A stretch of DNA of 64,000 bases from an uncultured Pseudomonadales bacterium. Lineage in GTDB: Bacteria; Patescibacteriota; Microgenomatia; UBA1400; MFAQ01. Location: the NCBI GenBank assembly GCA_964348455.1, contig CAYGCQ010000001.1, forward strand, positions 58,450 through 122,449. The letters run 5' to 3'. Shown one piece after another: positions 1,313 to 61,783 of the stretch. Each line of letters begins with the position of its first letter. Position 1 is the stretch's first letter. The notes under the pieces are model-generated. The model searched no databases. It worked only from the letters and a program-made list of their open reading frames with translations, and was not told the origin of the DNA. The position numbers and the translations under genes were made by a program.

Positions 1313-1386
1313 GTCATTGCGAGGAGTGAAGCGACGCGGCAATCTATAATATCAATTGTCATTCCCGACCTGATCGGGAATCTATA
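1313..1386 (+). repeat. two adjacent hairpin repeats (type C 1313-1348; canonical 29-mer 1358-1386) between rfbC and the rmlD-like gene
   Basis: gtcattgcgaggagtgaagcgacgcggcaatctata, then gtcattcccgacctgatcgggaatctata, 15 nt before ATG 1401. Confidence 0.9.
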
Positions 1387-5410: not shown

Positions 5411-5596
5411 ATGGCCGAAAAAGAACACCAATCTTCAATGTTTAATATAGATCCGGGAGGTAATGAAACAGTAAGGCCTAAAGGAATATTGAAAAAATTT
5501 AAAAAAGAAAAGAAAATTAAGCCGGCAAAAGAAAAGAAGCAAAAACCCGATCCGTCAGATCGGTGGAGTTGGACAAATCAGGGTGACGAAAAATAG
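5411..5596 (+). CDS. hypothetical small Lys-rich protein
   Basis: 61-aa ORF, low complexity. Could be non-coding. Confidence 0.25.
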   Translation: MAEKEHQSSMFNIDPGGNETVRPKGILKKFKKEKKIKPAKEKKQKPDPSDRWSWTNQGDEK

Positions 5597-5649
5597 CTAT
5601 TTTATCTTTCCCTACTATCTTTTCTTCCCCACACCACCACCACCACATT

Positions 5650-5944
5650 GTCATTCCGGGTCGTAGAGTCGCCTTGGGAGACCTTGACCCGGAATCCAGC
5701 CCCACACCACCCACTCATTAATTTGTCATCCCCGCGAAGATGGACCACTGGCACCCGAGGGGATAGATCCACAATCACTCACCACCTCACCAGTCATTGC
5801 GAGTTTCGGTACCCGATCCCAGAGTCGCCTCAGGAGACACCGAAGCAACCTCACACCACCTCACCACACCGTCTCACCACCCACTCATTAATTTGTCATC
5901 CTCTTCGCACTCCTTGTCATTCCCGACCTGATCGGGAATCTATA
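5650..5944 (+). repeat. intergenic array of 5 heterogeneous hairpin-repeat units separated by CA-rich (caccac) spacers
   Basis: Units: GTCATTCCGGGtcgtagagtcgccttgggagaccttgACCCGGAATCC (5650-5697); GTCATCCCCGCGAAGatggaccactggcacccgaggggatagatcca (5725-5771); GTCATTGCGAGTTTCGGT...ACCGAAGCAACCTCAC (5793-5854); a degenerate unit; then the canonical 29-mer (5916-5944). Confidence 0.9.
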
Positions 5945-6345
5945 TAGATAAAGTACAATTTAATTGTGAAGAGATATTATGTGTATATTCTCGCAAGTTA
6001 TAAAAATGGTACGCTGTATATAGGTGTAACAGGAAATTTAGAAAATAGAATATCTATCCATAAAAACGATATTGTGAAGGGGTTTACAAAGAAATTTGCA
6101 GTACACAGTCTGGTTCATCTGGAGGAATTCGAGAATTCATTACAAGCTATAGCAAGAGAAAAACAACTAAAGCATTGGAAGAGAGATTGGAAAATTGAAC
6201 TCATTGAAAAATCAAATCCAGATTGGAATGATATATCTGATGAATTTCTCTAAAAAAAGTTGAACCCGTTTTTATAGATTCCCGATCAGGTCGGGAATGA
6301 CGATTGAAATATTCCACATATTTTTACTCCGTGATTCGCAATGAC
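5916..6345 (+). mobile_element. ~430 bp micro-element: GIY-YIG nuclease gene flanked by perfect 29-bp terminal inverted repeats (copy 1)
   Basis: Left end gtcattcccgacctgatcgggaatctata (5916-5944) is the exact reverse complement of tatagattcccgatcaggtcgggaatgac (6273-6301). A second partial inverted unit gtgattcgcaatgac lies at 6331-6345. The whole unit is duplicated identically at 9253-9682. Confidence 0.7.
5966..6253 (+). CDS. GIY-YIG nuclease superfamily protein (UPF0213/YhbQ-like), 95 aa
   Basis: YVYILASYKNGTLYIGVTGNLENRISIHKND matches the GIY-(x10)-YIG core with the conserved R and H/N that follow. Identical to the ORF at 9303-9590. Confidence 0.8.
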   Translation: MKRYYVYILASYKNGTLYIGVTGNLENRISIHKNDIVKGFTKKFAVHSLVHLEEFENSLQAIAREKQLKHWKRDWKIELIEKSNPDWNDISDEFL

Positions 6346-6350
6346 AACAA

Positions 6351-6980
6351 TTACTTCCTTTTCCTCCACTTCTCAATTTCCTTATGATTTCCGGAGAGCA
6401 GTACATCCGGCACCTTCCAGCCATTGTACTCAGCCGGTCTGGTGTACTGCGGGTACTCCACGGCCATATCTTCGCTGTAAGACTCTTCTTTAAGAGATTC
6501 CGGATTCCCCAGAACCCCGGGCATTAGTCGACAAATACTGTCCACAGCCACCATTACCGGAAGCTCACCACCGCTTAGGACGTAGGGGCCGATACTATAT
6601 ATCTCATCTGCCAAATGTTCGTGGACGCGGTGATCAATACCCTCAAAGTGCGGGGCAATAAAGATCAAATGCTCTTCTGTTTTCAGTTTTTCGGCACTTT
6701 TCTGGTCATACATTTTTCCCTTTGTATCCATCAAAATTACTTTAGTATTTTCAGTCTTGAGTTCTTTGATGGCTCGATCCACCACATCTATTTTCATCAC
6801 CATGCCGGCACCTCCACCAAAAGGGTGACCATCCACACTTTTGTAGTTATCATCACTCCAGTCCCGTAAATTTCGGACATTGATTTGTACAGCCTCGGTT
6901 CCCACAGCCCGGCCAATCATGGAAGTCTTAAAAACACCTTCGAACATCTCTGGGAATATCGTCAAAATATCAATCTTCAT
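6351..6980 (-). CDS. trmD: tRNA (guanine37-N1)-methyltransferase
   Basis: MKIDILTIFPEMF...HPFGGGAGMVMKIDVVDRAI...IYSIGPYVLSGGELPVMVAVDSICRLMPGVLGNPESL is a full-length TrmD with SPOUT knot motifs. Confidence 0.9.
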   Translation of the reverse strand: MKIDILTIFPEMFEGVFKTSMIGRAVGTEAVQINVRNLRDWSDDNYKSVDGHPFGGGAGMVMKIDVVDRAIKELKTENTKVILMDTKGKMYDQKSAEKLKTEEHLIFIAPHFEGIDHRVHEHLADEIYSIGPYVLSGGELPVMVAVDSICRLMPGVLGNPESLKEESYSEDMAVEYPQYTRPAEYNGWKVPDVLLSGNHKEIEKWRKRK

Positions 6981-6994
6981 TATGATAAATTTGG

Positions 6995-7501
6995 CTAAAG
7001 ATCTATTATCGTGGGTGCGTAACCCTTAGTGAAAAAGATATGAGTCTTTTGATCAGTGCCATTATCCACTTTAACCGTGCAAGTTTCATCGCTTGTTTCC
7101 AGACTTGTAACCTGATATTCCTGATTAGCCTTGATTATATCCGGTTTACCATTGTAAGAGATTCTACCATTTTTAAGGATGGTCAGAATATTGATATTGC
7201 CTGTATCTGGATCTGTATTAGTATAATACTCTTTAGTCTCTGCATCTGGATTTAACTCTCTTTTCCAGCCATCTCTAGGAATATGGCCGAGTACATACCC
7301 CATGGGAAATGCGAATTCGCTCCCATCCATACCAGGATAACCATTGTATCTTTTTCGTATCCCATCCAATAAATTCAACACACTCTCATTATCATGAGAT
7401 GTCTCCACTTCACTTTTGCTTCTATCTGAGGAATTTGTTTCCATATACTGATAATACACCTTCCATTCAATTAGGAGAATATGGCTATATAATATCCTCA
7501 T
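6995..7501 (-). CDS. hypothetical protein
   Basis: 168-aa ORF with no recognisable domain. An internal M (METNSSD) is an alternative start that would leave a short divergent intergenic spacer. Confidence 0.45.
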   Translation of the reverse strand: MRILYSHILLIEWKVYYQYMETNSSDRSKSEVETSHDNESVLNLLDGIRKRYNGYPGMDGSEFAFPMGYVLGHIPRDGWKRELNPDAETKEYYTNTDPDTGNINILTILKNGRISYNGKPDIIKANQEYQVTSLETSDETCTVKVDNGTDQKTHIFFTKGYAPTIIDL

Positions 7502-7823
7502 GCCCAGACTTGTAAAGAAAACCGCTCACGCCCCCATGAAAGTGGGAGATAAATATATTTGCATGTGTGGTCTATCCAAAGACCAGCCATTTTGCGACAA
7601 ATCGCATCTTAAGACCCTCAAGGAGGACGAAACCAAACTTTACTGGTACGAGAACGGTAAAGCCGAAGAAATCGTGACCGAACCCGGGGAGTGTGATTGT
7701 GAAGAATGCAAGGAAGAGAAAAACTGTTGTTCAGACAGGGAGTGTCAATGTGACGGATTGTCTTCTGACGAGAGTACCGGGGACTGTTCCGGAGAAAATT
7801 GCTGTGGCCGTTGCAAAAAATAA
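7500..7823 (+). CDS. CDGSH-type iron-sulfur domain protein with Cys-rich C-terminal tail
   Basis: CMCGLSKDQPFCDKSH matches the C-x-C-x2-S-x3-P-x-CDGSH signature. The tail has many Cys pairs (CDCEEC, CCSDRECQC, CCGRC). Confidence 0.6.
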   Translation: MPRLVKKTAHAPMKVGDKYICMCGLSKDQPFCDKSHLKTLKEDETKLYWYENGKAEEIVTEPGECDCEECKEEKNCCSDRECQCDGLSSDESTGDCSGENCCGRCKK

Positions 7824-7828
7824 TATTT

Positions 7829-9010
7829 ATGAAAAAACTTCCCATCGCAGTCATCGTCATCCCCACTTACAACGAAGCTGCTTCTATCGGGAAGATGATA
7901 GATCACCTCTTTACAGTTACTTTTCCAATCATCAAGAACTGGGATTGTAAAGTTTTAGTAGTTGACGACACATCTCCCGATGGCACCTACAAGGTAGTTC
8001 AAGAAAAGCAAAAGAAGTTCAAAAATTTATTTTTATCCCTTAGTGCCAAGAAGGCCGGTATTGGCGGCGCCTATGTCCGAGGATTCCGCTACGCCATGAA
8101 AGAGCTACATGCCGACGTGGTCATTGAGATGGATGGAGACTTCCAGCATCCTCCTCGACTAGTAAACAATTTACTGAAAGCCATTGACGACGGTTACGAC
8201 TACGTCATGGGTTCCAGAAAAATAAAAGGTGGCAGCAATCCGAAAGGTTGGGGGTTCAAGAGAGTTTTCTTTAGTGAAGTTGGCGGTATGGTCGCTCGCT
8301 TTGTATTATTCTTCCCCACCAAAAATTACTTCCGCATTACAGATCCTACCGGTGGTTTCAAGGCTTCACGAGTTAAAGGTTTTGTAGACACCATTGACAT
8401 GGATCATCTTTATTCCAGAAGTTTTGGGTACAAGTTGGAGTTTCTCTACAAAATGGTTCTGTTGGGAGCCAAGGTAAAAGAAATACCATTACAGTTCAAT
8501 GTTAGAAATGCCGGAGAATCCAAGATAGAGCCTCAGACAGCTAAAGAGATTTTCAAAACAGTTTTTCTGCTTCGGTGGAACGATTCAACTACTCAAAAAT
8601 TTATTAAATTTGGATGCATCGGACTTTTCGGTTTTGCCATTAACAAAATCGGCCTCGACGTCTTTGCTAAACTTCTGGGCAACGTAATCAGTGTAATAGG
8701 AGTTCGTAATACCGTCGCCAACGCCCTCGCCGCCGAGGTTTCTATTATCAGTAACTTTGTTTTTAACAATCTCTGGACCTTCAAGAATGAAAAACTTGTT
8801 TGGGGGTCCAAGTTAATCAAAAAGTTTACTACTTTCAATCTCAGTTCCGTAGTCTCCGGTATCATCATCCCTAGTTTGGTAATCGGTCTTGGCACTCAGA
8901 CTTTTGGTGATCAGTACCGCACCCTTTTCTTAGTCATTGCTGTCTTCCTCATTACTGTACCGCTAAACTGGTTCATCTACAACGTATTTATTTGGAAGAA
9001 GAATAAGTAA
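7829..9010 (+). CDS. GT2 polyprenyl-phosphate sugar synthase (DPM1-like) fused to C-terminal GtrA-like 4-TM domain
   Basis: AVIVIPTYNEAASI, VVDDTSPDGT and IEMDGDFQHPP are GT2 DxD-family motifs. The C-terminus FIKFGCIGLFGFAINKIGLD...NLWTF resembles GtrA-family domains. Start taken at MKKLPIAV. Confidence 0.75.
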   Translation: MKKLPIAVIVIPTYNEAASIGKMIDHLFTVTFPIIKNWDCKVLVVDDTSPDGTYKVVQEKQKKFKNLFLSLSAKKAGIGGAYVRGFRYAMKELHADVVIEMDGDFQHPPRLVNNLLKAIDDGYDYVMGSRKIKGGSNPKGWGFKRVFFSEVGGMVARFVLFFPTKNYFRITDPTGGFKASRVKGFVDTIDMDHLYSRSFGYKLEFLYKMVLLGAKVKEIPLQFNVRNAGESKIEPQTAKEIFKTVFLLRWNDSTTQKFIKFGCIGLFGFAINKIGLDVFAKLLGNVISVIGVRNTVANALAAEVSIISNFVFNNLWTFKNEKLVWGSKLIKKFTTFNLSSVVSGIIIPSLVIGLGTQTFGDQYRTLFLVIAVFLITVPLNWFIYNVFIWKKNK

Positions 9011-9016
9011 AAACCC

Positions 9017-9281
9017 GTCATTGCGAGTTTCGGTACCCGATCCCAGAGTCGCCTCTGGAGAGACCGTAGCAACCTCACACCTTTCACCACACCACCCACC
9101 ACACCACCCGTCATTGCGAGTTTCGGTACTACGAACCGAAGCAATCTCCGCTATTACACCACTCCACGAATGTCATCCTCGCGAAAGCGGGCCGATAGTA
9201 CCCGAATGGGTAGATCCACAAACACCACACAACACATCCTCAAAACACCCCAGTCATTCCCGACCTGATCGGGAATCTATA
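9017..9281 (+). repeat. intergenic array of 4 hairpin-repeat units with CA-rich spacers, ending in the left TIR of GIY-YIG element copy 2
   Basis: Units at 9017-9078 (GTCATTGCGAGTTTCGGT...long loop...AACCTCAC), 9110-9149 (GTCATTGCGAGTTTCGGTactacgaACCGAAGCAATCTCC), 9172-9219 (GTCATCCTCGCGAAAGCGGGccgatagtacccgaatgggtagatcca) and 9253-9281 (canonical 29-mer). Confidence 0.9.
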
Positions 9282-9682
9282 TAGATAAAGTACAATTTAA
9301 TTGTGAAGAGATATTATGTGTATATTCTCGCAAGTTATAAAAATGGTACGCTGTATATAGGTGTAACAGGAAATTTAGAAAATAGAATATCTATCCATAA
9401 AAACGATATTGTGAAGGGGTTTACAAAGAAATTTGCAGTACACAGTCTGGTTCATCTGGAGGAATTCGAGAATTCATTACAAGCTATAGCAAGAGAAAAA
9501 CAACTAAAGCATTGGAAGAGAGATTGGAAAATTGAACTCATTGAAAAATCAAATCCAGATTGGAATGATATATCTGATGAATTTCTCTAAAAAAAGTTGA
9601 ACCCGTTTTTATAGATTCCCGATCAGGTCGGGAATGACGATTGAAATATTCCACATATTTTTACTCCGTGATTCGCAATGAC
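9253..9682 (+). mobile_element. GIY-YIG micro-element copy 2, identical to 5916-6345
   Basis: Same 29-bp TIRs (9253-9281 and 9610-9638), same internal sequence and ORF, same gtgattcgcaatgac end (9668-9682). Flanking sequence diverges immediately outside. Confidence 0.7.
9303..9590 (+). CDS. GIY-YIG nuclease superfamily protein, identical second copy
   Basis: 95-aa translation identical to 5966-6253. Confidence 0.8.
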   Translation: MKRYYVYILASYKNGTLYIGVTGNLENRISIHKNDIVKGFTKKFAVHSLVHLEEFENSLQAIAREKQLKHWKRDWKIELIEKSNPDWNDISDEFL

Positions 9683-9691
9683 GCAAATTTT

Positions 9692-9723
9692 GAGTTTTAG
9701 AGTTTTTGAGTTTTAGAGTTTTT
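9692..9723. repeat. direct tandem repeat (gagttttagagttttt) x2 at the 3' end of the minus-strand gene
   Basis: Two adjacent 16-nt units. A related motif ttttagagttttagattttttgagttttt occurs at 61747-61779. Confidence 0.8.
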
Positions 9724-10838
9724 TACAAATATGGAGCCCAATCCGCTATTGGTGCAGTGTTGTTTAAAAGGAAATTCCACGTAAATAAGAAAATTGGGAC
9801 TATTAGCAAAGCTGCAATTACTTTAAACTCTTTTTTTTGAGCAAGTTTATCCCAGCCAATAAGTACAAATGGAGCTATCGGCAATATGTATCTACTGATA
9901 TCTCGGTGAGCTACAAAAAGAGTGGATAAGAAAAACAGTCCAGCAAAATAGTATTCAACATCCAGTTTTTTCTCTTTAAGCTTCATGACTCCGATTCCAA
10001 AAATCAACCATGTCCAGATAATATCTTCGAGCCAAAAATTTCCCACCCAAACTTGACCTTTGGGTGCAAACACACTAAATGGTGGCCAGAATAAATGCAT
10101 ATTATCTCCGCTGTGCAAATAAGCCCAGAAATCACCGGTTCGAATATTAAAGAACTGGAACAATCCAAAAATTGCAACCACTTGAATTAATAACGGCCAG
10201 TACTTCCATTGAATTTTCTCCTCTTTGACTGATTGAACTAACGCAAATATTCCATACGCAGCAAGTAGAATAATTGCCGGACTTTTGGTCAGTTGGGCTA
10301 ACGCACCAAATACACCTGCCCAAACATATCTTCCTTTTTTGAAGTAAAAAAGGCTGGCAATGATAAAAAGCATAAACCATGGCTCAGGTGAACCAATCCC
10401 TCTTAGTGCCAACCATCTTGCCGGAAGAATCATAAAAACTATTGTTAGCCAAAACGGGTTAACGCTCAGTTTAAACTCGCTAAGGTACTTGTAAAACATT
10501 AAGAAGCACAGAATGGTTCCGAGTAAAGTGGCAAGTAGCATCGCCGTCGGCCCTTTCAAGAAAGGATCAAACATCGATATAACTGCAGGGTAAAGTGGGA
10601 AGTGTGCTGCAAAATACTCCGCTGTTTCTGTCGTCGAGAATGCAGTCTTTATGTGTTCTCTGTCATACCATGTTTTTTCAACTATTAGGTAGTTTGGACC
10701 ATCATAATTCTGCCAAAGAATCTTTGTTCCTTCAGAAAAATCAAGATTCCACCCGGGAAGATTGCTTTTTAGGACAAAAGGTGCCCAAACAATCAAGGTA
10801 AATAAAATAGTAATTAACACTAAATAAGCTCGTTTCAT
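9723..10838 (-). CDS. polytopic membrane protein, GPI-mannosyltransferase-2 (PIG-V)-like GT-C family candidate
   Basis: About 9 predicted TM helices. The N-terminal loop WQNYDGPNYLIVEKTWYD...FPLYPAVI resembles the W-DG-WY...GY...FFPLYP signature of Mannosyl_trans2-type proteins. Paralogous to 55861-56994. Confidence 0.5.
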   Translation of the reverse strand: MKRAYLVLITILFTLIVWAPFVLKSNLPGWNLDFSEGTKILWQNYDGPNYLIVEKTWYDREHIKTAFSTTETAEYFAAHFPLYPAVISMFDPFLKGPTAMLLATLLGTILCFLMFYKYLSEFKLSVNPFWLTIVFMILPARWLALRGIGSPEPWFMLFIIASLFYFKKGRYVWAGVFGALAQLTKSPAIILLAAYGIFALVQSVKEEKIQWKYWPLLIQVVAIFGLFQFFNIRTGDFWAYLHSGDNMHLFWPPFSVFAPKGQVWVGNFWLEDIIWTWLIFGIGVMKLKEKKLDVEYYFAGLFFLSTLFVAHRDISRYILPIAPFVLIGWDKLAQKKEFKVIAALLIVPIFLFTWNFLLNNTAPIADWAPYL

Positions 10839-10857
10839 CTACCTCTAGTATATACTT

Positions 10858-11574
10858 GTGAGTATGTCGAGACAAATAGATAAACTATCCGTATTCTTAC
10901 CGGCTTACAACGAGGAGGCAAATCTTGATAAAACAGTCAGAAATGTTGTAGAAAACCTCAAAAAAAATGTTTCCACCTGGGAGCTAATCATTGTTAACGA
11001 TGGCTCCAAAGACAAGACCGGTGAAATTGCCGATCGATGGAGCAAGAAAGACAAGAGGGTTACCGCCATTCACCACAATCCAAATCGAGGTTACGGGGCC
11101 GCCTTAAAGAGTGGCTTATATGCTTGTAAATATCCCTGGATCTCCTTTATCGACTCCGACGGCCAGTTCGATTTCAGAGAGATAAATCGTTTTATGGATA
11201 CTCAAGAAAAAACCGGTGCCGACATGGTCATAGGTTACTATCTTGGTAGAAAAGTTTCCTTCACTAGAAAATTAAATACTTTTATGTGGCAAGTAATTGT
11301 CCGAATCTTATTCGGTTTGAATGTCAGAGACATCGACTGTGGCTTCAAATTAATTTCCAAGAGAGTTGTGGACAAAATCGAACCGTTACAAAGTGAGAGG
11401 GGAGCCTTTATTAGCAGTGAATTCTTAATTAAAGCCAAAAAAGCCAGGTTCAAAATAGTGGAGATTGGTGTTCAGCACTTTCCCAGAAAACAGGGTGAGG
11501 GCACGGGGGCCAATCTAGACGTCATCATTCAGAGTTTTGTTGATCTCTTCAAGCTATGGTACAAGCTGAAGTAA
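10858..11574 (+). CDS. GT2 glycosyltransferase, DPM1-like polyprenyl-phosphate sugar synthase
   Basis: LSVFLPAYNEEANL, IIVNDGSKDKT, FIDSDGQFD, HHNPNRGYGAA and GFKLISKRV motifs. Confidence 0.75.
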   Translation: MSMSRQIDKLSVFLPAYNEEANLDKTVRNVVENLKKNVSTWELIIVNDGSKDKTGEIADRWSKKDKRVTAIHHNPNRGYGAALKSGLYACKYPWISFIDSDGQFDFREINRFMDTQEKTGADMVIGYYLGRKVSFTRKLNTFMWQVIVRILFGLNVRDIDCGFKLISKRVVDKIEPLQSERGAFISSEFLIKAKKARFKIVEIGVQHFPRKQGEGTGANLDVIIQSFVDLFKLWYKLK

Positions 11575-11576
11575 CC

Positions 11577-11826
11577 GTCATCCCCGATCCAGGAGTCGCT
11601 TGGGAGACCCTGATCGGGGATCAATATAATTAAAATACTCTGTCATCCTCGCGAACGCGGGGATTCACAGAAACAAAAAAACAACACCATGTCATTCCAG
11701 CGAAGGCGGGCCGCTGGTCCCCGGAGGGGGAAATCCATCAAATAAAACAAATGATAAAAAACCCAAAAATCTTTATTAAAAAATAATAAATAACATTGTC
11801 ATTCCCGACCTGATCGGGAATCTATA
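11577..11826 (+). repeat. intergenic array of 4 hairpin-repeat variants ending in the canonical 29-mer directly upstream of the next start codon
   Basis: Units at 11577-11632 (GTCATCCCCGATCcaggagtcgcttgggagaccctGATCGGGGATC), 11642-11670 (GTCATCCTCGCGAACGCGGGGATTC), 11691-11740 (long GTCATTCCAGCGAAGGCGGGccgctggtccccggagggggaaatcca) and 11798-11826 (canonical). The ATG follows at 11830. Confidence 0.9.
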
Positions 11827-11829
11827 CAA

Positions 11830-13326
11830 ATGAACTCAATAATAAATTTTATAAAAAAGAACAAATCCGAGTCTATATTGCTTGGAGCAGTCCTCCTTCT
11901 TGCACTTGTACTTCGCGTCTATCGTATCGAAGATTTTATGACCTTTCTTGGTGACGAGGGTCGTGATGTCCGCATTGTTCGCGATTTAATTACTCAAGGC
12001 AACTTAGTCTTTATCGGTCCGCAAACCAGTATTGGAAACATGTATCTAGGACCTCTTTATTACTACATGATGGCCCCTGCACTTCTCCTTTCCGGTCTCA
12101 ACCCCGTTGGACCAGCCATTATGGTTGCTCTACTGGGAACACTGACAATCTGGCTGACTTGGTTCGTCGGTAGAAACTGGTTTGGCAAACAGGCTGCATT
12201 TATCGCTGCGCTGCTTTTTGCAGTCTCTCCGGTCGCCATTATTTACTCCCGCTCTTCATGGAATCCTAACCCGATGCCTTTTTTCGCTCTTCTGTGTATC
12301 TGGGGAATCTATGAAGTCTGGCAGAATAAAAAATATATTTGGCTTCCCTATACCAGCATCTCTTTTGCCTTTGCTCTTCAGATGCACTATCTGGGGTTAC
12401 TTTTGATTCCTACCCTAGGCCTGTTCTGGCTTTTTACTCTCATATCCATTAATAAAGCCAAAGACATAAGGTCTAGAAGGATTTTTCTACGATATTCTCT
12501 TTTTGGGTTTTTGATTTTTTTATTACTGATGTCTCCACTTTTGCTGTTCGACACAAAACACAACTGGATGAACTTTAATGCTTTCAAGTCATTTTTCTCA
12601 GATCGTCAGACAACTGTAAATCTAAACCCCGCCAGGTCAGATAGATTTCTTCCTGTCATGCTTATGACCATTTCAGACATGGTTTTAGCTCGCCAAGAGT
12701 ACTTTGCTCCCATAACCTTAGCACTCACTCTTCTGCTGTCAGGCTGGGTTTATTTTAAGTCCAAGTGGCAGACTCCTCTAAAGGTATTATTTGTTTGGCT
12801 CGGTCTAGCTATCCTTGGTCTTAGTGTCTATAAGCAACATGTCTACATTCACTATCTCGGATTTATCTACCCAGCCATCTACCTTCTCATTGGGGCGATT
12901 TTAGGATTCATGTTACAACGGAAAGTAGTCTTAAAAATTATTTCAGCTTCTCTGGTACTCTTTCTCTTTTTCTACAGTCTGGTTTACAGTCCGGTAAGAG
13001 AAACTCCAAATCGTCAACTTTGGCGCACAGAAGCGGCCGTAGATCTCATTATTAAGGAGTCGGGTGGCCAGCCGTTCAACTTTGGCTTACTTGCAAAACA
13101 AAACTATGATGAGTCCTATCGTTATTTTTTGGAGAACAAAAAAGCCAATTCTTTTAGAGCTGAAGATAAGGTAACGAATCAGATGTTTGTCATCTGTGAA
13201 GACGGTGATGCTTGTAGCCCGGAAGGAAGTCCTGCGTATCAAATAGCCAAGTTTGGACAAGCTCATGTAGTGGGCACATGGAATGTTGACTATCTGAAAA
13301 TTTATCGTTTAGCACATTTCAAATGA
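11830..13326 (+). CDS. GT-C fold membrane glycosyltransferase, ArnT/PMT-like (subfamily with GDEGRD loop motif)
   Basis: More than 10 TM helices. The first periplasmic loop RIEDFMTFLGDEGRDVRIVRD carries the DE motif. Paralogous to 27145-28878 and the N-terminal half of 37686-38273. Confidence 0.65.
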   Translation: MNSIINFIKKNKSESILLGAVLLLALVLRVYRIEDFMTFLGDEGRDVRIVRDLITQGNLVFIGPQTSIGNMYLGPLYYYMMAPALLLSGLNPVGPAIMVALLGTLTIWLTWFVGRNWFGKQAAFIAALLFAVSPVAIIYSRSSWNPNPMPFFALLCIWGIYEVWQNKKYIWLPYTSISFAFALQMHYLGLLLIPTLGLFWLFTLISINKAKDIRSRRIFLRYSLFGFLIFLLLMSPLLLFDTKHNWMNFNAFKSFFSDRQTTVNLNPARSDRFLPVMLMTISDMVLARQEYFAPITLALTLLLSGWVYFKSKWQTPLKVLFVWLGLAILGLSVYKQHVYIHYLGFIYPAIYLLIGAILGFMLQRKVVLKIISASLVLFLFFYSLVYSPVRETPNRQLWRTEAAVDLIIKESGGQPFNFGLLAKQNYDESYRYFLENKKANSFRAEDKVTNQMFVICEDGDACSPEGSPAYQIAKFGQAHVVGTWNVDYLKIYRLAHFK

Positions 13327-19464: not shown

Positions 19465-22400
19465 AAAATTTCTTATAATCATCACCTTTATTTTTCTTAG
19501 CCTTCCGGGGAAAACTCTTGCTTTTAAGCCAGAAACTTTTGTCACTTTTGCCAATCCTGTTCGTGGTCCTGAAAATTGGCAAGCCGGCAAGCAAGACCCT
19601 CTGGCTCTTCCTATGCTTCAGTATGCCGAGTCCACATCCTCTGCTTATCCAATTACCTGGTTGCTTCGGTATGATGCAGTCAGAGATGCGACGATGTCTG
19701 CTTTTTTCAATAATCTCTCGACATCTGACAAGACTCAGACTCTAGGAGCATTCCTAGAAATTACACCTAAGTTATCTGCCGAAGCCAACGTCTCGTATCC
19801 AAAGGGCACCACTCCATTCAATGCCAATCGCATTTTTCTTTCCGGCTACTCGATAGATAATCGAGAAAATCTTATAGATACTTACATGGCCGCCTTCTTT
19901 GTTGAGTACGGCTACTATCCCAAGTCTGTCTCAGCCTGGAACCTTGATAGTTATAGTTTGCAGTACCTCCAATCCAGGTACTCAGTCCTAACAGCCATGA
20001 ACTGCGACGATCAGTACACCACTGATAACTATCGCATCTGGGGTGGTTATTTAGGTAGTCCCTACTTCCCGGATAAGAACAACTCCCTTATTCCGGCTAA
20101 ATCAGCTGACGAGCGTGTGAACTTGGCCATGGTACGCTGGGCTCAGAGAGACCTATTTAATTTTTACGGATATCGTTCTGAGTCTTCTTACTCAGTACAA
20201 GTAAATGATTATTTAGCTCAGGGACAAAACACAAAGTACTTTGAGAAACTCTTGGGATTGTATTCTCAGAGAAATTTAAATGAATTCACTTATATTAATA
20301 TTGGTTTGGAAAACGATTACGGTCTCATTGAATATAAAGCTGAGATAAAAAATGTTTTCAAAGCTCTTAAAGTAAACGAAGAAAAATTCAATCTCCACTT
20401 TATTTCGTTGTCCGATTTTGGTGATTGGTTCAAAGCTCGATACCCCGAAAGCACCCCGGCCTACTACTACGAGACCACAGATCCTTTGGAAAGTAGAGAA
20501 GGTAAGGTGTTTTGGTACCAGAGTCCTTGGTATCGCATCGGTTTCAAATCGGAAAAGGGGATTACTAAGATTATAGATTTCCGTGTGTACAATCGGGAAA
20601 TATATGAAGACTACTTTGCCACCCCGAATCAAGAACTTAGTCTCTACCAGGAAATTCCTGCCGTCATAGACTCGGTAAAGACACCAGGAACAGAAGTCAT
20701 TTTAGATCTGGATTTGGAAAAAGCTGAATTAGTCCACTCAAAGCAGTGGGATTACTGGCAAATTGCTTTTAAGTCGGGAGATGAAATTGTGACGCTAGAA
20801 CCGGAAAGAATTGTTTTTTCAGGTGTTTCTGCTCCGACGATTTCATCCAAAGATATCAAAGTAATCTCTAAGAAAAAAACAACCACTTGGGAATTAACTC
20901 CATACACTCCCTTTAAAAACTCTTCAAAGTTTACTTGGTTATTCTGGCTTCTTGCATCCCTAATAGTTGTCATCCTCGCGAAAGCGGGGATCCATCCCAA
21001 ATCACGACCTCCAACCTCGTCATTGCGAGATTCGGTAGACCGAACCGAAGCAATCTCCTCCACCAAACAATCCGTAATCTCTAAAAAAAATTCTTCTAAT
21101 GCCACAAAATCATCTGTCATCCTCGCGAAAGAGTTTACACTCCTGGGCGGGGGGATCCATCCGAACACTCGCACTCTTATAATTAGCATCTTAATCTCTC
21201 TCCTCGCCACCCTTACCGTCTTCCGTAATGGCCTTCTCTACCCCTTTGGCATGGGTTTCTGGGGTCCCAACGGACACGACGCTATCTTCCATCTCTCGCT
21301 CATAGAAAAATTCGCAGCCAGCCCCTTTAGTTTTTTACACCCCCAGATAGCCGGAGAGAGAATTGCCAACTATCATTTCATTTTTGATTTTCTGTCGGGG
21401 TTAGTCGTTAAGCTCTTTGGCATCTCTTCTCTGGATCTTTACTTTCGAGTCTTTCCTGTCGCTGCCGGTATCACTATAGTCTTACTCTTAAACAAGTTAC
21501 TAATATCTTGGAAATATAATCGCCAAGAAAGATTACTGGCAATCTTTCTAGCATTTCTGGCCGGTTCATTTGGCTTTATCCCAAAGCTTCTTACCGGCCA
21601 AAATTTTTTTACCGGAGAGTCCGCTTTCTGGGCCAACCAATCGGTCTCTATTTTTCTCAACCCCCCCTACGCCCTCTCCCTCATCCTCCTCCTAATTTTT
21701 CTTAACCGTATCACTAGTCATTCCCGACCTGAGCGGGTCGCTGATACTCGAAGGGGTAAATCAATACAAGACAGTTCAAAATTCTCGCCTGTCATCCCTG
21801 CAAAGGCAGGAATCCATCAAATTATTCCTCTAATTATTCTTGGTGCCCTCCTTGCCCAAACAAAAATCTACGCATTTATCCTACTTCTAGGAGCATTGTT
21901 ATTCTCCAAAAAATACAAACTGTTCTTCGGCGTTCTTGTTCTCGGAGTATTAATATCTTTGCCATTTACCGCCTTCGGTGGACCGTCACCCTTTCTCTTT
22001 TCTCCACTTTGGTTTCCCAGAAGTCTTTTTGCTTCATTTGATCGTTTTTACTGGCCCCAAATAGTTCAGGCCTGGCAAGCGTACGAAGCCTCAGGAAACT
22101 TTATTAAGCTAGCCTTGGTAAATTTATTTGCCTTAACAGTCTTTTTGATAGGAAACTTGGGCATGCGTTTTCTCGGCCTTATCCGAATTGCAAAAACAAA
22201 GGCGCCTAATGATTCCGAGACAATTGTTCGCTGGGTTATCTTTTTTGGACTAATCATTCCATTACTTTTCGTTCAGAACATCAATCCCTGGAACACGATC
22301 CAGTTCATGTACTACTCACTTTTTTTCTTAGCCATCTTCACCGCAAAATATATAAGCTCTCTTTTCACAGAAAAAACTGTCATCCTCGCGAATGAGGGAC

Positions 22401-22972
22401 GCTGGTCCCCGAAGGGGGAGATCCACAAACTGCCTCACCTTGTCATTCCGGGCTTGACCCGGAATCTATACAAATCTTCCATATTTTTAGTATTCATTCT
22501 TTTTGCCACCCTCACCTCCATTGGCACTCTCAAGGATTACATTGGTTTCTTCTCTTCTTCCCGTATCGGGTACACAGAACTATTGGCCCTGGATAAATTC
22601 CGAGACCAACCCAGAGGTATTGTCCTAGCTCCTTTTTACAGTCAGCCAAAGGCTTCAACCATCTACGCCCCCAAACCACTTTACTCATACGTATCCACAG
22701 CTTACATCTCCGCCATTTCAGGTCAACCGGAGTTCCTAGCCGATACTATCAATTTAGACATTACCGGCTTCGATTATACTGATCGCGCTAGGGACGTTCA
22801 GCGCTTTTACATTACCGAAGATAAACTGTGGGCAAACGACTTTTTATCTAATAATCATATTGAATACGTCTACGAAACCCCACTCCAAAAAATCAAGCTA
22901 GCTCCGGAAGATCTCAAATTAAAAAAAATCTTTGACTCTGGTGAAATAAATGTCTACGTTCGAGCACTGTAA
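19457..22972 (+). CDS. 1171-aa ORF: N-terminal secreted domain (~500 aa) plus C-terminal polytopic membrane domain, bridged by seven in-frame hairpin repeats (possibly two genes)
   Basis: Signal-like N-terminus MLKKFLIIITFIFLSLPGKTLA. Repeats at 20969-21162, 21717-21818 and 22379-22470. The downstream half has more than 10 TM helices. No stop in 3.5 kb. Confidence 0.45.
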   Translation: MLKKFLIIITFIFLSLPGKTLAFKPETFVTFANPVRGPENWQAGKQDPLALPMLQYAESTSSAYPITWLLRYDAVRDATMSAFFNNLSTSDKTQTLGAFLEITPKLSAEANVSYPKGTTPFNANRIFLSGYSIDNRENLIDTYMAAFFVEYGYYPKSVSAWNLDSYSLQYLQSRYSVLTAMNCDDQYTTDNYRIWGGYLGSPYFPDKNNSLIPAKSADERVNLAMVRWAQRDLFNFYGYRSESSYSVQVNDYLAQGQNTKYFEKLLGLYSQRNLNEFTYINIGLENDYGLIEYKAEIKNVFKALKVNEEKFNLHFISLSDFGDWFKARYPESTPAYYYETTDPLESREGKVFWYQSPWYRIGFKSEKGITKIIDFRVYNREIYEDYFATPNQELSLYQEIPAVIDSVKTPGTEVILDLDLEKAELVHSKQWDYWQIAFKSGDEIVTLEPERIVFSGVSAPTISSKDIKVISKKKTTTWELTPYTPFKNSSKFTWLFWLLASLIVVILAKAGIHPKSRPPTSSLRDSVDRTEAISSTKQSVISKKNSSNATKSSVILAKEFTLLGGGIHPNTRTLIISILISLLATLTVFRNGLLYPFGMGFWGPNGHDAIFHLSLIEKFAASPFSFLHPQIAGERIANYHFIFDFLSGLVVKLFGISSLDLYFRVFPVAAGITIVLLLNKLLISWKYNRQERLLAIFLAFLAGSFGFIPKLLTGQNFFTGESAFWANQSVSIFLNPPYALSLILLLIFLNRITSHSRPERVADTRRGKSIQDSSKFSPVIPAKAGIHQIIPLIILGALLAQTKIYAFILLLGALLFSKKYKLFFGVLVLGVLISLPFTAFGGPSPFLFSPLWFPRSLFASFDRFYWPQIVQAWQAYEASGNFIKLALVNLFALTVFLIGNLGMRFLGLIRIAKTKAPNDSETIVRWVIFFGLIIPLLFVQNINPWNTIQFMYYSLFFLAIFTAKYISSLFTEKTVILANEGRWSPKGEIHKLPHLVIPGLTRNLYKSSIFLVFILFATLTSIGTLKDYIGFFSSSRIGYTELLALDKFRDQPRGIVLAPFYSQPKASTIYAPKPLYSYVSTAYISAISGQPEFLADTINLDITGFDYTDRARDVQRFYITEDKLWANDFLSNNHIEYVYETPLQKIKLAPEDLKLKKIFDSGEINVYVRAL
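20969..20998 (+). repeat. hairpin repeat type E (GTCATCCTCGCGAAAGCGGGGATCCATCCC), in-frame (VILAKAGIHP)
   Basis: Stem CCTCGCG/CGCGGGG with a T-G pair that is a G-U wobble only on the + strand RNA. Confidence 0.9.
21019..21058 (+). repeat. hairpin repeat type D (GTCATTGCGAGATTCGGTagaccgaACCGAAGCAATCTCC), in-frame
   Basis: Nested stems ATTGC/GCAAT and TTCGGT/ACCGAA. Confidence 0.9.
21116..21162 (+). repeat. type E repeat with 15-nt insertion in the loop, in-frame
   Basis: gtcatcctcgcgaaag[agtttacactcctgg]gcggggggatccatcc. Confidence 0.85.
21717..21773 (+). repeat. long hairpin-repeat variant (GTCATTCCCGACCTGAGCGGGtcgctgatactcgaaggggtaaatca), in-frame
   Basis: Same architecture as 61439-61496. 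Confidence 0.85.
21791..21818 (+). repeat. hairpin repeat type F (GTCATCCCTGCAAAGGCAGGAATCCATC), in-frame (VIPAKAGIHQ)
   Basis: Stem CCTGC/GCAGG. Confidence 0.9.
22379..22429 (+). repeat. long type E variant (GTCATCCTCGCGAATGAGGGacgctggtccccgaagggggagatcca), in-frame
   Basis: Contains the inner GGTCCCCGAAGGGGGA hairpin shared with the 2364, 11691 and 51816 units. Confidence 0.85.
22442..22470 (+). repeat. type B repeat GTCATTCCGGGCTTGACCCGGAATCTATA, in-frame (VIPGLTRNLYK)
   Basis: Exact match to other type B copies. Confidence 0.9.
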
Positions 22973-39580: not shown

Positions 39581-40332
39581 TCCCTCAACTTTTCCTGTCA
39601 TTTGTATTTTCTTTGATATTCTTTGCCAGAGAAAAATCAGGCTGGTTTGGTATTCTATATCTCGCATTTCTTCCATTTATTATTTTCTCCGGCTTAGAAC
39701 CACTCCTCTTATTTATCTCACTATTACTCGGGTATCTCCTCTTTTGTCTTTTCCGAAAACCAACCGCTTCTAACTTCGTAATCTTTATAATTGTTGTTAT
39801 TACTTCTCTTGCTATAGTCCAGCCAAGGAGTGGAATTGATCTGGGCATGCTCAATGCAATCAATTCTCAAAGAGGGGAGCACTCCGATTTTGAAAACTCA
39901 CTATTGCCAAAGCTACTTCACAACAAATCAGACCTTTTCCAATCTTTTATAAACAATTTTGACAAGCTTTTGTCTCCAGTTGCCATTTTTGCTTCCGGAT
40001 TTTGGCACAATATCAGTCCTTATTATCCTCTTGGATTCTTGTTTCCTTGGGATCTATTTTTTATCTATTACTTCTTCAAGAATCAATCGACTTCTTGGAC
40101 TCGAAAATCTTACTGGTTTTTTGCAGTAGCCTTGATTCTACTTATCCTGCTTACGGGATTTGTCTACCTTGACCAGGCAGAGGTTTACTGTTTCGCTGTC
40201 GTTTATTTCTTGGCTATTTTGGCTTTCCTTGGATATTCGCAGTCATCCATAAAGACCAGATATATTTTCCTACTCATCAACTCAATTTACTTGGTCTACC
40301 ATCTGGTCGTCACTAGTTACTTTCCCATATGA
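39577..40332 (+). CDS. hypothetical polytopic membrane protein
   Basis: 251 aa with about 7 TM helices. Overlapping start and stop with its neighbours. Confidence 0.45.
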   Translation: MIPQLFLSFVFSLIFFAREKSGWFGILYLAFLPFIIFSGLEPLLLFISLLLGYLLFCLFRKPTASNFVIFIIVVITSLAIVQPRSGIDLGMLNAINSQRGEHSDFENSLLPKLLHNKSDLFQSFINNFDKLLSPVAIFASGFWHNISPYYPLGFLFPWDLFFIYYFFKNQSTSWTRKSYWFFAVALILLILLTGFVYLDQAEVYCFAVVYFLAILAFLGYSQSSIKTRYIFLLINSIYLVYHLVVTSYFPI

Positions 40333-42062: not shown

Positions 42063-42083
42063 CGCATATAATTACTAAGCAAC

Positions 42084-46318: not shown

Positions 46319-48245
46319 AAGCAAAACTTTTATTTTTCTACTTCTAACCACCTTATTGGGTGGTGTTCTCAGATTTTGGAAATTGGCCGACTTCCCTGTA
46401 GCACCCAACTGGGATGAGGTGAGTCATGGAGTTAATGCCTACTCGATACTCTTGACCGGAAAAGATGAATGGGGAATTTCATTCCCTCATATTTTTCGAG
46501 CATTTGGTGACTACAAACTTCCTTTGTATATTTATCTCTCTACTATCCCAGTTTGGCTTTTTGGATTAAACGTATTTGCTGTGAGATTCATTTCTGCCTT
46601 AGCCGGAACTCTCGCCATCCCCGGAATTTACTTACTAACACGAGAACCCTTCACAAATAAAGACACATCAAAGGACTCACCTGTCATTCCCGACCAGATC
46701 GGGAATCTATATAAAGACCTTCCGCTCCTCTCTGCCCTCCTTCTTGCCATCTCTCCATGGCACTTCTTCATTTCTCGTCCCGCTCTGGAAGCCAATCTAT
46801 CACTTACCCTAATAATTTTCGGCTTTTATTTCTTATTACGATTTTTGAAGCAAAATCAACCTGTCATCCCGACCGCAGTGGAGGGATCTCAAACCACAAA
46901 AAAATCTTTATCTCGAAAGATTTCTCTTCTCCCCGCGGTCCTACTTCTTGGTCTTTCCCTCCACACTTACAACACCGCCCGCGTCTTCGTCCCATTAATG
47001 GTTATCACAACACTTTTAATCTATAAAGAAAAATTTCTATCTAACATTCGTCATTCCGGGCTTGACCCGGAATCCATCCGGAAACAAAAAAATTTAAATA
47101 GATTCCTAATCAGGGTCTCCCAGTCGCTACGATCGGGAATGACAAGTAATATTTTTGCACTGCTCCTGGTAGTTATTTTCTCCGGCCTCGTCATCTTTCA
47201 AGTCTTCGTTGGAGAGGGCACAGCCCGCTACGAAAAATTAAAGATTTTATCGCCAGCTGCCGTTTTTCAAATAGGGGAAAGTCGAGCTAATAGCCAGCTA
47301 GCACCTCTATTTGCCAAGCTGATTCATAATCGACCTGTTTTCTTTGTTGGCACCGCACTCAGAAATTACATAGGGTATTTCACTCCCGATTTTTTCTCTC
47401 AGAAATGGGGAGCCCAGTTCCAGTTTGCAATTCCGGATCAGAACCTTTTGACTCTTCCTGTATTCCTCTTGGCCTTTCTCGGCTTCTTCTCTTTCCTTAG
47501 ACGAATCAACCCCCTTACGAATCATAAAATCATAAGTCATTCCCGACCTGATCGGGAATCTATACAAATGAATTCCATCAAATCCTTTCAGTTTCTTTAT
47601 TCCTGGCTCTTACTATCCCCGATAGCAGCGTCTCTCACTATAGATCCACCACAAGCCCTTCGCCCAAATCCCATGATCCCAGCCCTGATCATTTTTGCTG
47701 CACTGGGTTTTTACCGGCTTTTAAGTCTCGTTGGGTCCAAATGGAAAACAACAATCTCTGTCCTTCTTGCCTTGTGGATATCTATTTCTTTCGGTTTTTA
47801 TCTCAAGAATTACTTCGGTGATTATTCTCAAAAGTATTCTTCTTCATGGCAACATAGCTACGCTGAAGTAATGGATTACGTTAAAGATCACCAATCTGAA
47901 TACGACAAAATTTTTATAACCAAGCGCTTAGGCGAACCTCACATTTTCTATGCTTTTTACACCAAGTTAAATCCGGAACTGCTTCAGCTAGGGGGTGACA
48001 ATATCCGTTTTGAGAAGTCTGACTGGTTCTGGACAGATAAGATAGATAACATCTATTTTGTAAACGATTGGCAAATCCCAACTACCGGTATAAAAACTCT
48101 GCCATTAGAAAGTGGCGGTCAAATTCCCACCCAGAGAAGTCTCCTTATAACTTCTCCGGAACATGTACCGGTCAACGCTCATGTCATAAAAACAGTCAAT
48201 TTCTTAGATGGTACTCCAGCGTTTATAATTACTTCTGTCCCATGA
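46287..48245 (+). CDS. ArnT/PMT-family membrane glycosyltransferase (tandem paralog 4) carrying five in-frame hairpin repeats
   Basis: WDEVSHGVNAYSILLTGKDEWGISFPHIFRAFGDYKLP...AVRFISALAGTL. 652 aa versus ~565 for the siblings. The excess is accounted for by repeats at 46683, 46863, 47050, 47101 (inverted) and 47536. Confidence 0.65.
   Translation: MNQYFMKSIFKSKTFIFLLLTTLLGGVLRFWKLADFPVAPNWDEVSHGVNAYSILLTGKDEWGISFPHIFRAFGDYKLPLYIYLSTIPVWLFGLNVFAVRFISALAGTLAIPGIYLLTREPFTNKDTSKDSPVIPDQIGNLYKDLPLLSALLLAISPWHFFISRPALEANLSLTLIIFGFYFLLRFLKQNQPVIPTAVEGSQTTKKSLSRKISLLPAVLLLGLSLHTYNTARVFVPLMVITTLLIYKEKFLSNIRHSGLDPESIRKQKNLNRFLIRVSQSLRSGMTSNIFALLLVVIFSGLVIFQVFVGEGTARYEKLKILSPAAVFQIGESRANSQLAPLFAKLIHNRPVFFVGTALRNYIGYFTPDFFSQKWGAQFQFAIPDQNLLTLPVFLLAFLGFFSFLRRINPLTNHKIISHSRPDRESIQMNSIKSFQFLYSWLLLSPIAASLTIDPPQALRPNPMIPALIIFAALGFYRLLSLVGSKWKTTISVLLALWISISFGFYLKNYFGDYSQKYSSSWQHSYAEVMDYVKDHQSEYDKIFITKRLGEPHIFYAFYTKLNPELLQLGGDNIRFEKSDWFWTDKIDNIYFVNDWQIPTTGIKTLPLESGGQIPTQRSLLITSPEHVPVNAHVIKTVNFLDGTPAFIITSVP
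46683..46715 (+). repeat. canonical repeat variant (loop ccaga), in-frame (VIPDQIGNLYKD)
   Basis: gtcattcccgaccagatcgggaatctatataaa. Confidence 0.9.
46863..46892 (+). repeat. short degenerate variant GTCATCCCGACCGCAGTGGAGGGATCTCA, in-frame
   Basis: Resembles the 5' part of 61321-61371. Confidence 0.6.
47050..47080 (+). repeat. type B repeat GTCATTCCGGGCTTGACCCGGAATCCATCCGG, in-frame (RHSGLDPESI)
   Basis: Read in frame b. Confidence 0.9.
47101..47143 (-). repeat. inverted-orientation copy of the long GATC-stem variant (gattcctaatcagggtctcccagtcgctacgatcgggaatgac), still in-frame
   Basis: Reverse complement is gtcattcccgatcgtagcgactgggagaccctgattaggaatc. One of only three minus-orientation copies in the window. 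Confidence 0.85.
47536..47570 (+). repeat. canonical 29-mer plus CAAATG tail inside CDS, frame b (SHSRPDRESIQMN)
   Basis: Identical to the promoter-proximal copies at 11798 and 1358. Followed by an in-frame ATG. Confidence 0.9.
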
Positions 48246-51815: not shown

Positions 51816-52088
51816 GTCATTCCTGCGCAGGAATGACGCTGGTACCCGAAGGGGGAAATCCATCAAATCAATTTCATCCCCTTTCGTCATTGCGAGTTTC
51901 GTAACCGATCCCAGAGTCGCCTCAGGAGACACCGAAGCAATCTCACTCCACCCTTGTCATTCTGAACTTGATTCAGAATCCATCCCCTCATCTCACACAA
52001 ACAATCTCACTCCACACACCACACCACACGTCATGGGGTTAATCCGCCGTGGCGGAAGTTTTGGTATTCCGAACCGAAGCAATCTATA
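51816..52088 (+). repeat. intergenic array of 4 hairpin-repeat variants with CA-rich spacers
   Basis: Starts with the perfect 22-nt palindrome GTCATTCCTGCGCAGGAATGAC (51816-51837), extended by gctggtacccgaagggggaaatcca. Type D long unit at 51886-51946. GTCATTCTGAACTTGATTCAGAATCCATCCC at 51956-51986. A GTCATGGGGTTAATCCGCCGTGGCGGAAG... unit ending AAGCAATCTATAAT at about 52029-52088. Confidence 0.9.
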
Positions 52089-61736: not shown

Positions 61737-61783
61737 ATTTATTCCAATTTTAGAGTTTTAGATTTTTTGAGTTTTTCAGCTAG

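Follow-up and report, generated by a model that had tools for sequence, protein, structure and literature searches.

We analysed a 64-kb stretch of DNA (contig CAYGCQ010000001.1, positions 58,450 to 122,449; the window), in which a short unit carrying a GIY-YIG nuclease gene between inverted hairpin repeats was present twice, 3.3 kb apart. The host was probably a member of the Candidate Phyla Radiation (CPR)/Patescibacteria. Each 430-bp unit was very probably an Ssn cassette, that is, an ssn gene bracketed by inverted SRMs, the hairpins that such enzymes recognise. Chenal et al. reported this combination of nuclease and repeats, the Ssn/NTS(SRM) system, in 2025 (Nat Commun, PMC11893778). The features of the two copies were assigned as follows, in window coordinates.

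5650..5915, plus strand: heterogeneous SRM hairpin array with CA-rich spacers, upstream of copy 1
5916..6345, plus strand: probable Ssn cassette, copy 1 (SRM, ssn, SRM, degenerate SRM), with 430-bp identity to copy 2
5916..5944, plus strand: left terminal hairpin of copy 1, SRM variant GTCATTCCCGACCTGATCGGGAATCTATA, a perfect inverted repeat with 6273-6301
5966..6253, plus strand: ssn gene of copy 1, putative 95-aa single-domain GIY-YIG nuclease with a GTG start (from Pfam and SsnA homology)
6273..6301, minus strand: right terminal hairpin of copy 1, the same SRM inverted (from the repeat search)
6302..6345, minus strand: outer right end of copy 1, degenerate GTCATTGCGA-type unit, its ...AATGAC separated by 5 bp from the stop codon of trmD
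9017..9252, plus strand: SRM hairpin array upstream of copy 2, beginning 6 bp past the GT2-GtrA stop codon
9253..9682, plus strand: probable Ssn cassette, copy 2, both junctions seen in a second assembly (L001)
9253..9281, plus strand: left terminal hairpin of copy 2
9303..9590, plus strand: ssn gene of copy 2
9610..9638, minus strand: right terminal hairpin of copy 2
9639..9682, minus strand: degenerate outer unit of copy 2

The two copies were 100% identical across exactly 430 bp and unrelated beyond. The first outside base already differed at both ends. The unit started with GTCATT and ended with AATGAC, and its boundaries were exactly GTCAT and ATGAC. The 29-bp left arms were 100% complementary to the right arms, which began 328 bp beyond them in each unit. 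The 44 bp past the right arm still belonged to the unit, which closed with the second, degenerate, minus-oriented repeat. A reading made earlier from the sequence only had described two identical copies of about 430 bp with perfect 29-bp terminal inverted repeats (TIRs), a mixed array of related hairpins before each, and a discrete unit in differing surroundings. All of this was borne out. The independent assembly in the European Nucleotide Archive (ENA; contig k141_1621037, locus L001) was 100% identical to window 6318-12590. It spanned copy 2 with both junctions and, judged from the coordinates, stopped about 98 bp upstream, near window 6220, within copy 1. Such an end inside copy 1 is what a true repeat would give, and the duplication was therefore not an artefact of a single assembly. 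The GIY-YIG gene was the only open reading frame (ORF) in the unit. No conventional transposase (DDE, Y1/HUH, serine or tyrosine) was found in it or among 30 other window ORFs scanned, which agreed with the earlier description of a stand-alone nuclease gene.

The 95-aa protein matched Pfam GIY-YIG with E 4e-15 over residues 4-77 and contained no other domain. A search of 5.8 billion proteins gave more than 8000 relatives of 90-110 aa with 55-70% identity, from Patescibacteria, Planctomycetota, Fibrobacterota, Latescibacterota, Zixibacteria and other phyla. Y7, Y18, G20, R28, H32 and E65 were invariant in an alignment of 21 homologues. A C-terminal block, REKQLKxWxRxWKxxLIExxNPxW, was highly conserved in the same alignment. 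SsnA of Neisseria meningitidis is a single-domain GIY-YIG protein of 94 aa (cd10448) that binds NTS solely as forward-oriented single-stranded DNA (ssDNA), and its cleavage is abolished by Y6A, Y17A and E64A (PMC11893778). We found a 94-aa GIY-YIG ORF with Y6, Y17 and E64, flanked by NTS, in N. gonorrhoeae (NZ_CP119140.1, 1882275-1882559). From its length, these residues and the NTS flanks, we infer that it is the SsnA orthologue. This accession (L218) is filed in PLSDB as a non-mobilizable 2.17-Mb N. gonorrhoeae plasmid and is evidently the chromosome. The window protein was 51% identical to the gonococcal protein over 85 residues (87 bits, E 4e-29 pairwise; E 3e-19 by tblastn against 7.3 Gb). 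Y7/Y18/E65 aligned to Y6/Y17/E64, so the catalytic residues, which the sequence-only reading had left to an alignment, were intact. The homology criterion of the Ssn paper is E < 1e-10 to SsnA, and the values obtained here were below it. By homology, the window protein belongs to the Ssn family (cd10448) and is a putative ssDNA endonuclease.

Two other assignments were rejected. In the case of YhbQ/UPF0213, to which the protein had been likened earlier, the relation was only distant. The nearest solved structures were the UPF0213 proteins PDB 1zg2 (24 bits, E 3e-4) and 1ywl (19 bits), and these matches were weak compared with the 87 bits to the SsnA orthologue. A GIY-YIG homing endonuclease of the I-TevI type was rejected because the protein had a single domain, NCBIfam grpIintron_endo was sub-threshold (16.8 bits, cut-off 56) and the family was rare in viral contigs. 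Only 34 Ssn-family matches were found in 2.9 million viral contigs, which meant that the family was not phage-borne to a notable extent.

The hairpins were compared with the published repeat. NTS is defined as CGTCATTCCCGCGMAVGCGGGAATCYRG, and the NTS/SRM hairpin has the form CGTCATTCCCGCG..GCGGGAATC. Ssn enzymes, of which those of Neisseria and Wolbachia were characterised, cleave just upstream of the hairpin. The three bases 5' of the palindrome are needed for cleavage and the C just 3' for binding (PMC11893778). The cassette TIR reads GTC-ATTCCCGA-CCTGA-TCGGGAAT-C, which retains every critical position: 5' GTC, both arms (ATTCCC/GGGAAT) and 3' C. Its predicted fold as ssDNA was a hairpin with 8 bp in the stem and 5 nt in the loop (-7.6 kcal/mol, z -4.4). 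In the window we counted 14 occurrences of the 25-nt TIR core at up to 3 mismatches, against 0 in 100 shuffles. Twelve were on the plus strand, and the two on the minus strand were the right arms of the cassettes. Among about 50 dispersed GTCAT...AATC hairpins the cassette TIR was the commonest variant, as the sequence-only reading had stated. A looser pattern gave about 45 genuine GTCAT...AATC hairpins (39 on the plus strand), and about 9 further hairpins of GTCATCCT/GTCATTCT type were all on the plus strand. The same TIR variant flanked ssn homologues in Dehalococcoidia, Armatimonadota and Cloacimonadota loci (L054, L063, L069). Judged by these motifs, the window hairpins are an SRM variant, and the roughly 50 hairpins are the putative SRM population of this genome.

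We examined whether this arrangement is general in 80 loci fetched from one-genome-per-species contigs, of which 78 were usable. A forward GTCAT[TC][CG]C hairpin lay within 130 bp upstream of ssn in 49 of the 78 loci, and an inverted one within 130 bp downstream in 41. Both sides carried hairpins at 35 loci (45%) from many phyla, while background density predicted about 1.4 loci per flank. The two flanking hairpins were the sole occurrences in 6 kb at many loci. Cassettes ranged from 343 to 520 bp, and the arm consensus was GTCATTCCCGCGAAAGCGGGAATCCAG, equal to the published NTS. In the published survey, SRMs lay near the gene in 71% of homologues and on both sides in 42%, a share that our 45% matches, and Ssn was encoded by 81% of those genomes that held over 200 SRMs (PMC11893778). 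The idea of a previously uncharacterised element class was therefore not upheld, because the architecture, the spread over phyla and the biochemistry of Ssn/NTS(SRM) were published in 2025.

The paper likens the NTS-ssnA-NTS layout to an insertion sequence and draws a parallel with REP/RAYT, offers no evidence of mobility, and mentions neither CPR bacteria nor multiple cassette copies (PMC11893778). We found no later literature on SsnA. For comparative evidence, metagenomes were scanned with GT2-GtrA, the protein of a neighbouring gene, as query, which gave 80 related loci. Many relatives shared the gene order nitroreductase, small ORF, trmD (minus), CDGSH, GT2-GtrA, membrane protein (minus), GT2 and PMT. 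The sites of the two copies could be compared on this basis. Site 2 separates GT2-GtrA from the convergent membrane gene. Its length was 712 bp in the window and 0-15 bp in 16 or more relatives, and in others it was filled with unrelated cargo. In L082/L083 it held a different Ssn (42% identical), preceded by three tandem GTCATTGCGAG...CGAAGCAATC hairpins and followed by one inverted. Site 1 separates the small ORF from trmD. It was 754 bp in the window and 0-1 bp in L142 and L105, and it contained a single hairpin in L107 and L138 and two hairpins in L095. The comparison of occupied and empty sites proposed earlier thus found site 2 empty in at least 16 relatives and site 1 in several.

Cassettes were also compared elsewhere. 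A 73%-identical Ssn cassette with the same TIR was surrounded by unrelated genes (L182). One unrelated metagenome-assembled genome (MAG) held two paralogous cassettes that were 81% identical only from GTCAT to ATGAC, with arms 100% conserved. The L162 population had a truncated remnant, an SRM plus the 5' part of ssn, beside a full copy. At the Collierbacteria locus L183, tandem gene-less SRM(+)-8 nt-SRM(-) doublets adjoined the cassette. Near-identical cassettes were sought among the 80 genome loci, and solely orthologous Bradyrhizobium loci turned up. The exact 430-bp identity, the empty sites, the replacement by a different Ssn, the TIR-bounded paralogues, L182 and the L162 remnant add evidence that the cassette may behave as a copyable module. 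The suggestion that the small repeats have the gene as their autonomous partner is a hypothesis with some support, because of the empty sites, the non-orthologous cassette at the same site, the TIR-bounded paralogue pair and the gene-less doublets.

A mechanism can be proposed by analogy with the Neisseria and Wolbachia enzymes. The Ssn protein would bind the forward hairpin only when the DNA is single-stranded. Recognition would need GTC 5' and C 3' of the palindrome, and the strand would be hydrolysed a few nucleotides upstream of GTCAT. With inward-facing SRMs, the cuts are predicted to fall just outside each end, on opposite strands, on single-stranded DNA. Identity of the copies ended at the G of GTCAT on each strand, which is the predicted cut side. 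The cassette might then be copied as a unit via nick- or break-induced recombination or repair between SRMs. Such copying would be homing-like or gene-conversion-like and not cut-and-paste transposition, and SRM arrays and cassettes might be gained and lost at intergenic junctions. The model of recombination or repair between SRMs fits because a target-site duplication was absent and both copies adjoined SRM arrays.

Several results weighed against this interpretation. Of the two points that the sequence-only reading had wished to see mapped, the boundaries were found, while neither copy had a target-site duplication (flanks CTCCTT|...|AACAAT for copy 1 and ACCCCA|...|GCAAAT for copy 2). To our knowledge GIY-YIG enzymes hydrolyse DNA, and we know of no strand-transfer chemistry for them. 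The nuclease activity and specificity of the window protein are predictions from its relatives, and Ssn itself is a candidate for the agent that moves the cassette. The flanking repeats of N. gonorrhoeae face outward, and the fit between cut site and cassette end was not universal. The cassette TIR was not matched by the published SRM search string, HGTCWYN(0-2)YYVSBRHN(0-5)WNVSBRGN(0-2)RNCYNB. It failed at two inner stem/loop positions, where the palindrome spacer was N9 and not N8 and an inner G-C pair was A-T, so that GATCGGG stood where the string needs WNVSBRG. The string matched only 3 window hairpins (20968, 50358, 61706; 0.12 expected). We set it aside as a membership test, because it was built by hand from 29 genomes and is a search heuristic and not a defining feature. 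Jumping within populations was rejected for P0075 and P0017 (14 and 18 contigs), which kept one fixed locus in many samples. The Bradyrhizobium ssn orthologues were inherited vertically and had no hairpins nearby. These fixed loci and vertical orthologues meant that most family members behave as resident genes and do not jump. A unit that is single-copy elsewhere and always at the same locus had been named earlier as a refuting point, and in other populations the gene sat at one fixed locus.

Four other explanations were weighed. The unit could be an autonomous DNA transposon, with the GIY-YIG protein as transposase, the 29-bp hairpins as TIRs and the solo hairpins and doublets as miniature inverted-repeat transposable elements (MITEs). 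Such an element would account for perfect TIRs, two identical copies with different flanks, empty sites in relatives, a non-orthologous cassette at the same site, paralogous cassettes bounded by TIRs and gene-less inverted doublets (47050-47143, L183). We nevertheless consider it unlikely, because both copies lacked a target-site duplication, the gene was usually single-copy at a fixed locus within populations and the family was rare in viral contigs (34 in 2.9 million). The hairpin subfamilies of the window also outnumbered its Ssn types (one type in 64 kb). The general lack of known strand transfer by GIY-YIG enzymes speaks against it as well, although the Ssn paper itself remarked on the layout resembling an insertion sequence (PMC11893778). 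The hairpins could instead be REP/REPIN repeats moved by a RAYT (an IS200/IS605-like Y1 transposase) encoded elsewhere, with Ssn as a host or hitch-hiking nuclease that recognises them. The identical Neisseria repeat, ATTCCCGCGCAGGCGGGAATC, is a dRS3/REPIN repeat that Bertels and Rainey assigned as the REPIN of a Group 2 RAYT (bioRxiv 10.1101/2021.07.10.451892), and inverted doublets of the REPIN kind occurred in the window and in L183. However, the 30 window ORFs (64 kb only) included no Y1 transposase, the hairpin-flanked gene at 45% of loci across phyla was ssn, and the association of Ssn with SRM-rich genomes (81% of those with more than 200) is high (PMC11893778). We regard this as quite improbable.

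The two copies could also stem from local segmental duplication or gene conversion of an ordinary sort, with no connection to the nuclease, or from faulty assembly. This would fit the 3.3-kb distance and the similar hairpin arrays beside both copies, which could support recombination. It is hard to reconcile with identity that stopped exactly at the outer GTCAT on both sides while adjacent array units were just 76-94% alike, and with the same TIR-bounded homology in an unrelated MAG. The independent assembly confirmed copy 2 and, for copy 1, its right junction, and this explanation appeared very improbable. A role of the hairpins at the RNA level, as terminators, attenuators or stabilisers with the GIY-YIG gene merely among them, was just as hard to credit. 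Nearly all hairpins lay on the coding strand of a plus-strand gene run, many just ahead of start codons. On the other hand, no T-tract terminators were found in the scan of 5550-6400 and no Rfam matches in the window, and about 15 hairpins lay in frame inside ORFs. SsnA does not bind RNA, and recognition of ssDNA is determined by the GTCAT and AATC flanks, which are conserved across phyla (PMC11893778).

The Ssn cassette thus remained our preferred reading. A further step would be that SRM-ssn-SRM is an active, self-propagating element, in which the nuclease starts its own copying and gives rise to gene-less derivatives. In this reduced CPR genome the hairpins would then have filled one DNA strand to such a density that they stand in frame in surface glycosyltransferase genes, possibly diversifying these or controlling recombination there. 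We consider this step possible but doubtful.

Other observations concerned the cassette surroundings. Three CPR cassettes (window 5944-5966; L182 and L183 upstream of ssn) shared AAAGTACAAT in the stretch that separates the left hairpin from the start codon, and the TACAAT of this sequence ended 6 nt ahead of the GTG/ATG start. This suggests that TACAAT may be a -10 box of a leaderless or near-leaderless transcript, with a promoter overlapping the hairpin. A promoter and terminator scan of 5550-6400 did no better than shuffles and gave no terminators. The convergent junction of GT2-GtrA and the membrane gene was a hot spot of small accessory genes in the lineage (L082-L161) and was empty in other relatives. 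Its cargo included four-helix-bundle proteins resembling those of the 23S rRNA intervening sequence (IVS; L090, L107, L110), a protein of 232 aa (L099-L102) and larger ORFs (L091, L095, L112, L115). A short repeat, TTTTAGAGTTTTTGAGTTTT, recurred beside hairpins (window 9683-9722 and 61740-61775; L107 near trmD).

The remaining hairpin features of the window were as follows.

1358..1382, then starts at 2425, 11798, 16726, 26033, 40359, 46683, 47536, 48614 and 50719, all plus strand: ten further dispersed copies of the TIR variant
16726, 20969-22465, 27631-27868, 46683-47560, 48614, 50359, 50719 and 62851, in plus-strand ORFs: intragenic hairpins
47050..47143, no strand assigned: gene-less inverted SRM doublet (REPIN/MITE-like), in frame in a glycosyltransferase ORF
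5650-5695, 5793-5857, 9017-9081, 11577-11621, 27824-27868, 47100-47143 and 51886-51950: [AG]GAGTCGCCnnnGGAGAC loop modules

The hairpins were strongly biased in strand, with at least 48 forward on the plus strand and 6 on the minus strand. These six were the four cassette ends, one in the doublet at 47143 and one palindromic (51816/51837). Replication and transcription could not be separated as the cause, because most genes were also on the plus strand. GC skew was negative throughout and reflected mainly coding bias, and therefore gave no information on replication direction. The loop module, of 21-24 nt, was inserted in hairpins of different subfamilies and produced composite hairpins. According to the Ssn paper, the enzyme tolerates loop extensions (PMC11893778). 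A two-hairpin SRM variant, GTCATTCCCGCGAAGGCGGG-CCGCTGGTACCCGAAGGGG-AAATCC, occurred at 5725, 9172, 11691, 21717, 51816, 61321 and 61439. The ssn cassette of a Smithella MAG (L051) had this variant as its left arm too, which indicated a conserved subtype and not a local accident. The second subfamily, GTCATTGCGAG...CGAAGCAATC, was found at window 1313, 5793, 9017, 9110, 17223, 21019 and 51886, in L082 (6670-7190) and in L103. In relatives these hairpins flanked a distinct Ssn subtype, 42% identical, with KGGSRRRK replacing KxWxRxWK. This second Ssn type was sought in the 64-kb window and was absent. Rfam and tRNA scans of the window gave no matches.

The window as a whole was a surface-glycosylation island with genes for rhamnose synthesis, GT2, GT1/GT4, PMT_2, DUF2079 and GT87. 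Within this large island, six tandem paralogous PMT_2-type genes of about 560-650 aa each occupied 40329-51813. SRM hairpins lay at most of their boundaries, and several start codons fell within the conserved hairpin 3' flank (CTATACAAATG). About 15 SRM hairpins, approximately one third, lay in frame within long plus-strand ORFs for PMT_2/ArnT-like membrane glycosyltransferases. The encoded peptide inserts included VIPDLIGNLYK, VILAKAGIH and HSRPDRESI. A paralogue alignment placed the inserts, in the same frame, as gap columns between conserved blocks. The gene at 46302-48245 held five hairpins, including the inverted doublet. The main hairpin variant had a TGA in its third reading phase. The share of in-frame hairpins was far above the 2% of NTS that are intragenic in N. 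meningitidis (PMC11893778), and it was our most unexpected observation.

A possible mobile-element origin of Ssn/SRM has so far rested on resemblance alone, and the present locus adds concrete comparative evidence. It also extends the Ssn family to a probable CPR/Patescibacteria genome with a very high hairpin density, in which membrane glycosyltransferase genes tolerate hairpins in their reading frames. If the cassette were a self-propagating element, it would represent a nuclease-driven, transposase-free route of repeat spread. If the in-frame hairpins are general, they would tie the Ssn/SRM system to variation of surface structures in episymbiotic bacteria.

Several known systems resemble the locus in part. 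UPF0213/YhbQ proteins (PDB 1zg2, 1ywl) are likewise small stand-alone GIY-YIG proteins of about 100 aa, but they lack the C-terminal K-x-W-x-R-x-W-K...LIE..NP.W block that was invariant in the Ssn group. We know of no association of these proteins with hairpins. Insertion sequences and TIR transposons share perfect inverted repeats with the unit, here of 29 bp, whereas a target-site duplication and a transposase of known class were absent. In REP/REPIN-RAYT systems, whose transposases are IS200/IS605-derived Y1 enzymes, a resident gene likewise lies between copies of the short hairpins that are scattered over the genome. They share inverted doublets, ssDNA hairpin recognition and largely vertical inheritance with an occasional gain of copies. 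However, Ssn is a hydrolytic GIY-YIG nuclease and not an HUH/Y1 transposase, with no known covalent intermediate or strand transfer, and the 64-kb window contained no RAYT. Rickettsia palindromic elements are short palindromic repeats inserted in frame in protein genes, where they are tolerated as extra loop peptides. The in-frame inserts of the window resemble them, but the repeats here are SRM hairpins with a cognate nuclease gene.

The closest match was the Ssn/SRM system itself. In N. meningitidis it lowers transformation by NTS-bearing DNA, restricting recombination of incoming ssDNA that carries the motif (PMC11893778). The window shared with it a single-domain GIY-YIG protein of nearly the same length (95 aa against about 94), in which the catalytic Y, Y and E are unchanged and which is 51% identical to the gonococcal orthologue. 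It also shared a gene set between oriented hairpins built as GTCATTCCC-loop-GGGAATC, and hairpins dispersed in many copies and clustered near membrane and surface genes. The differences lay in the host, probably CPR/Patescibacteria, and in the main hairpin, whose 9-nt spacer and A-T inner pair fail the published string. The flanking hairpins faced inward, opposite to N. gonorrhoeae, where they face outward (the opposite of the majority arrangement). In addition, the cassette was present twice in identical form, the hairpins lay nearly all on one strand, and about one third of them were intragenic and in frame, compared with 2% in N. meningitidis. The locus thus represents a known kind of system and not a new class. 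What is new is the identical duplicate, the empty sites, the different cassette at the same site, the doublets and the in-frame hairpins.

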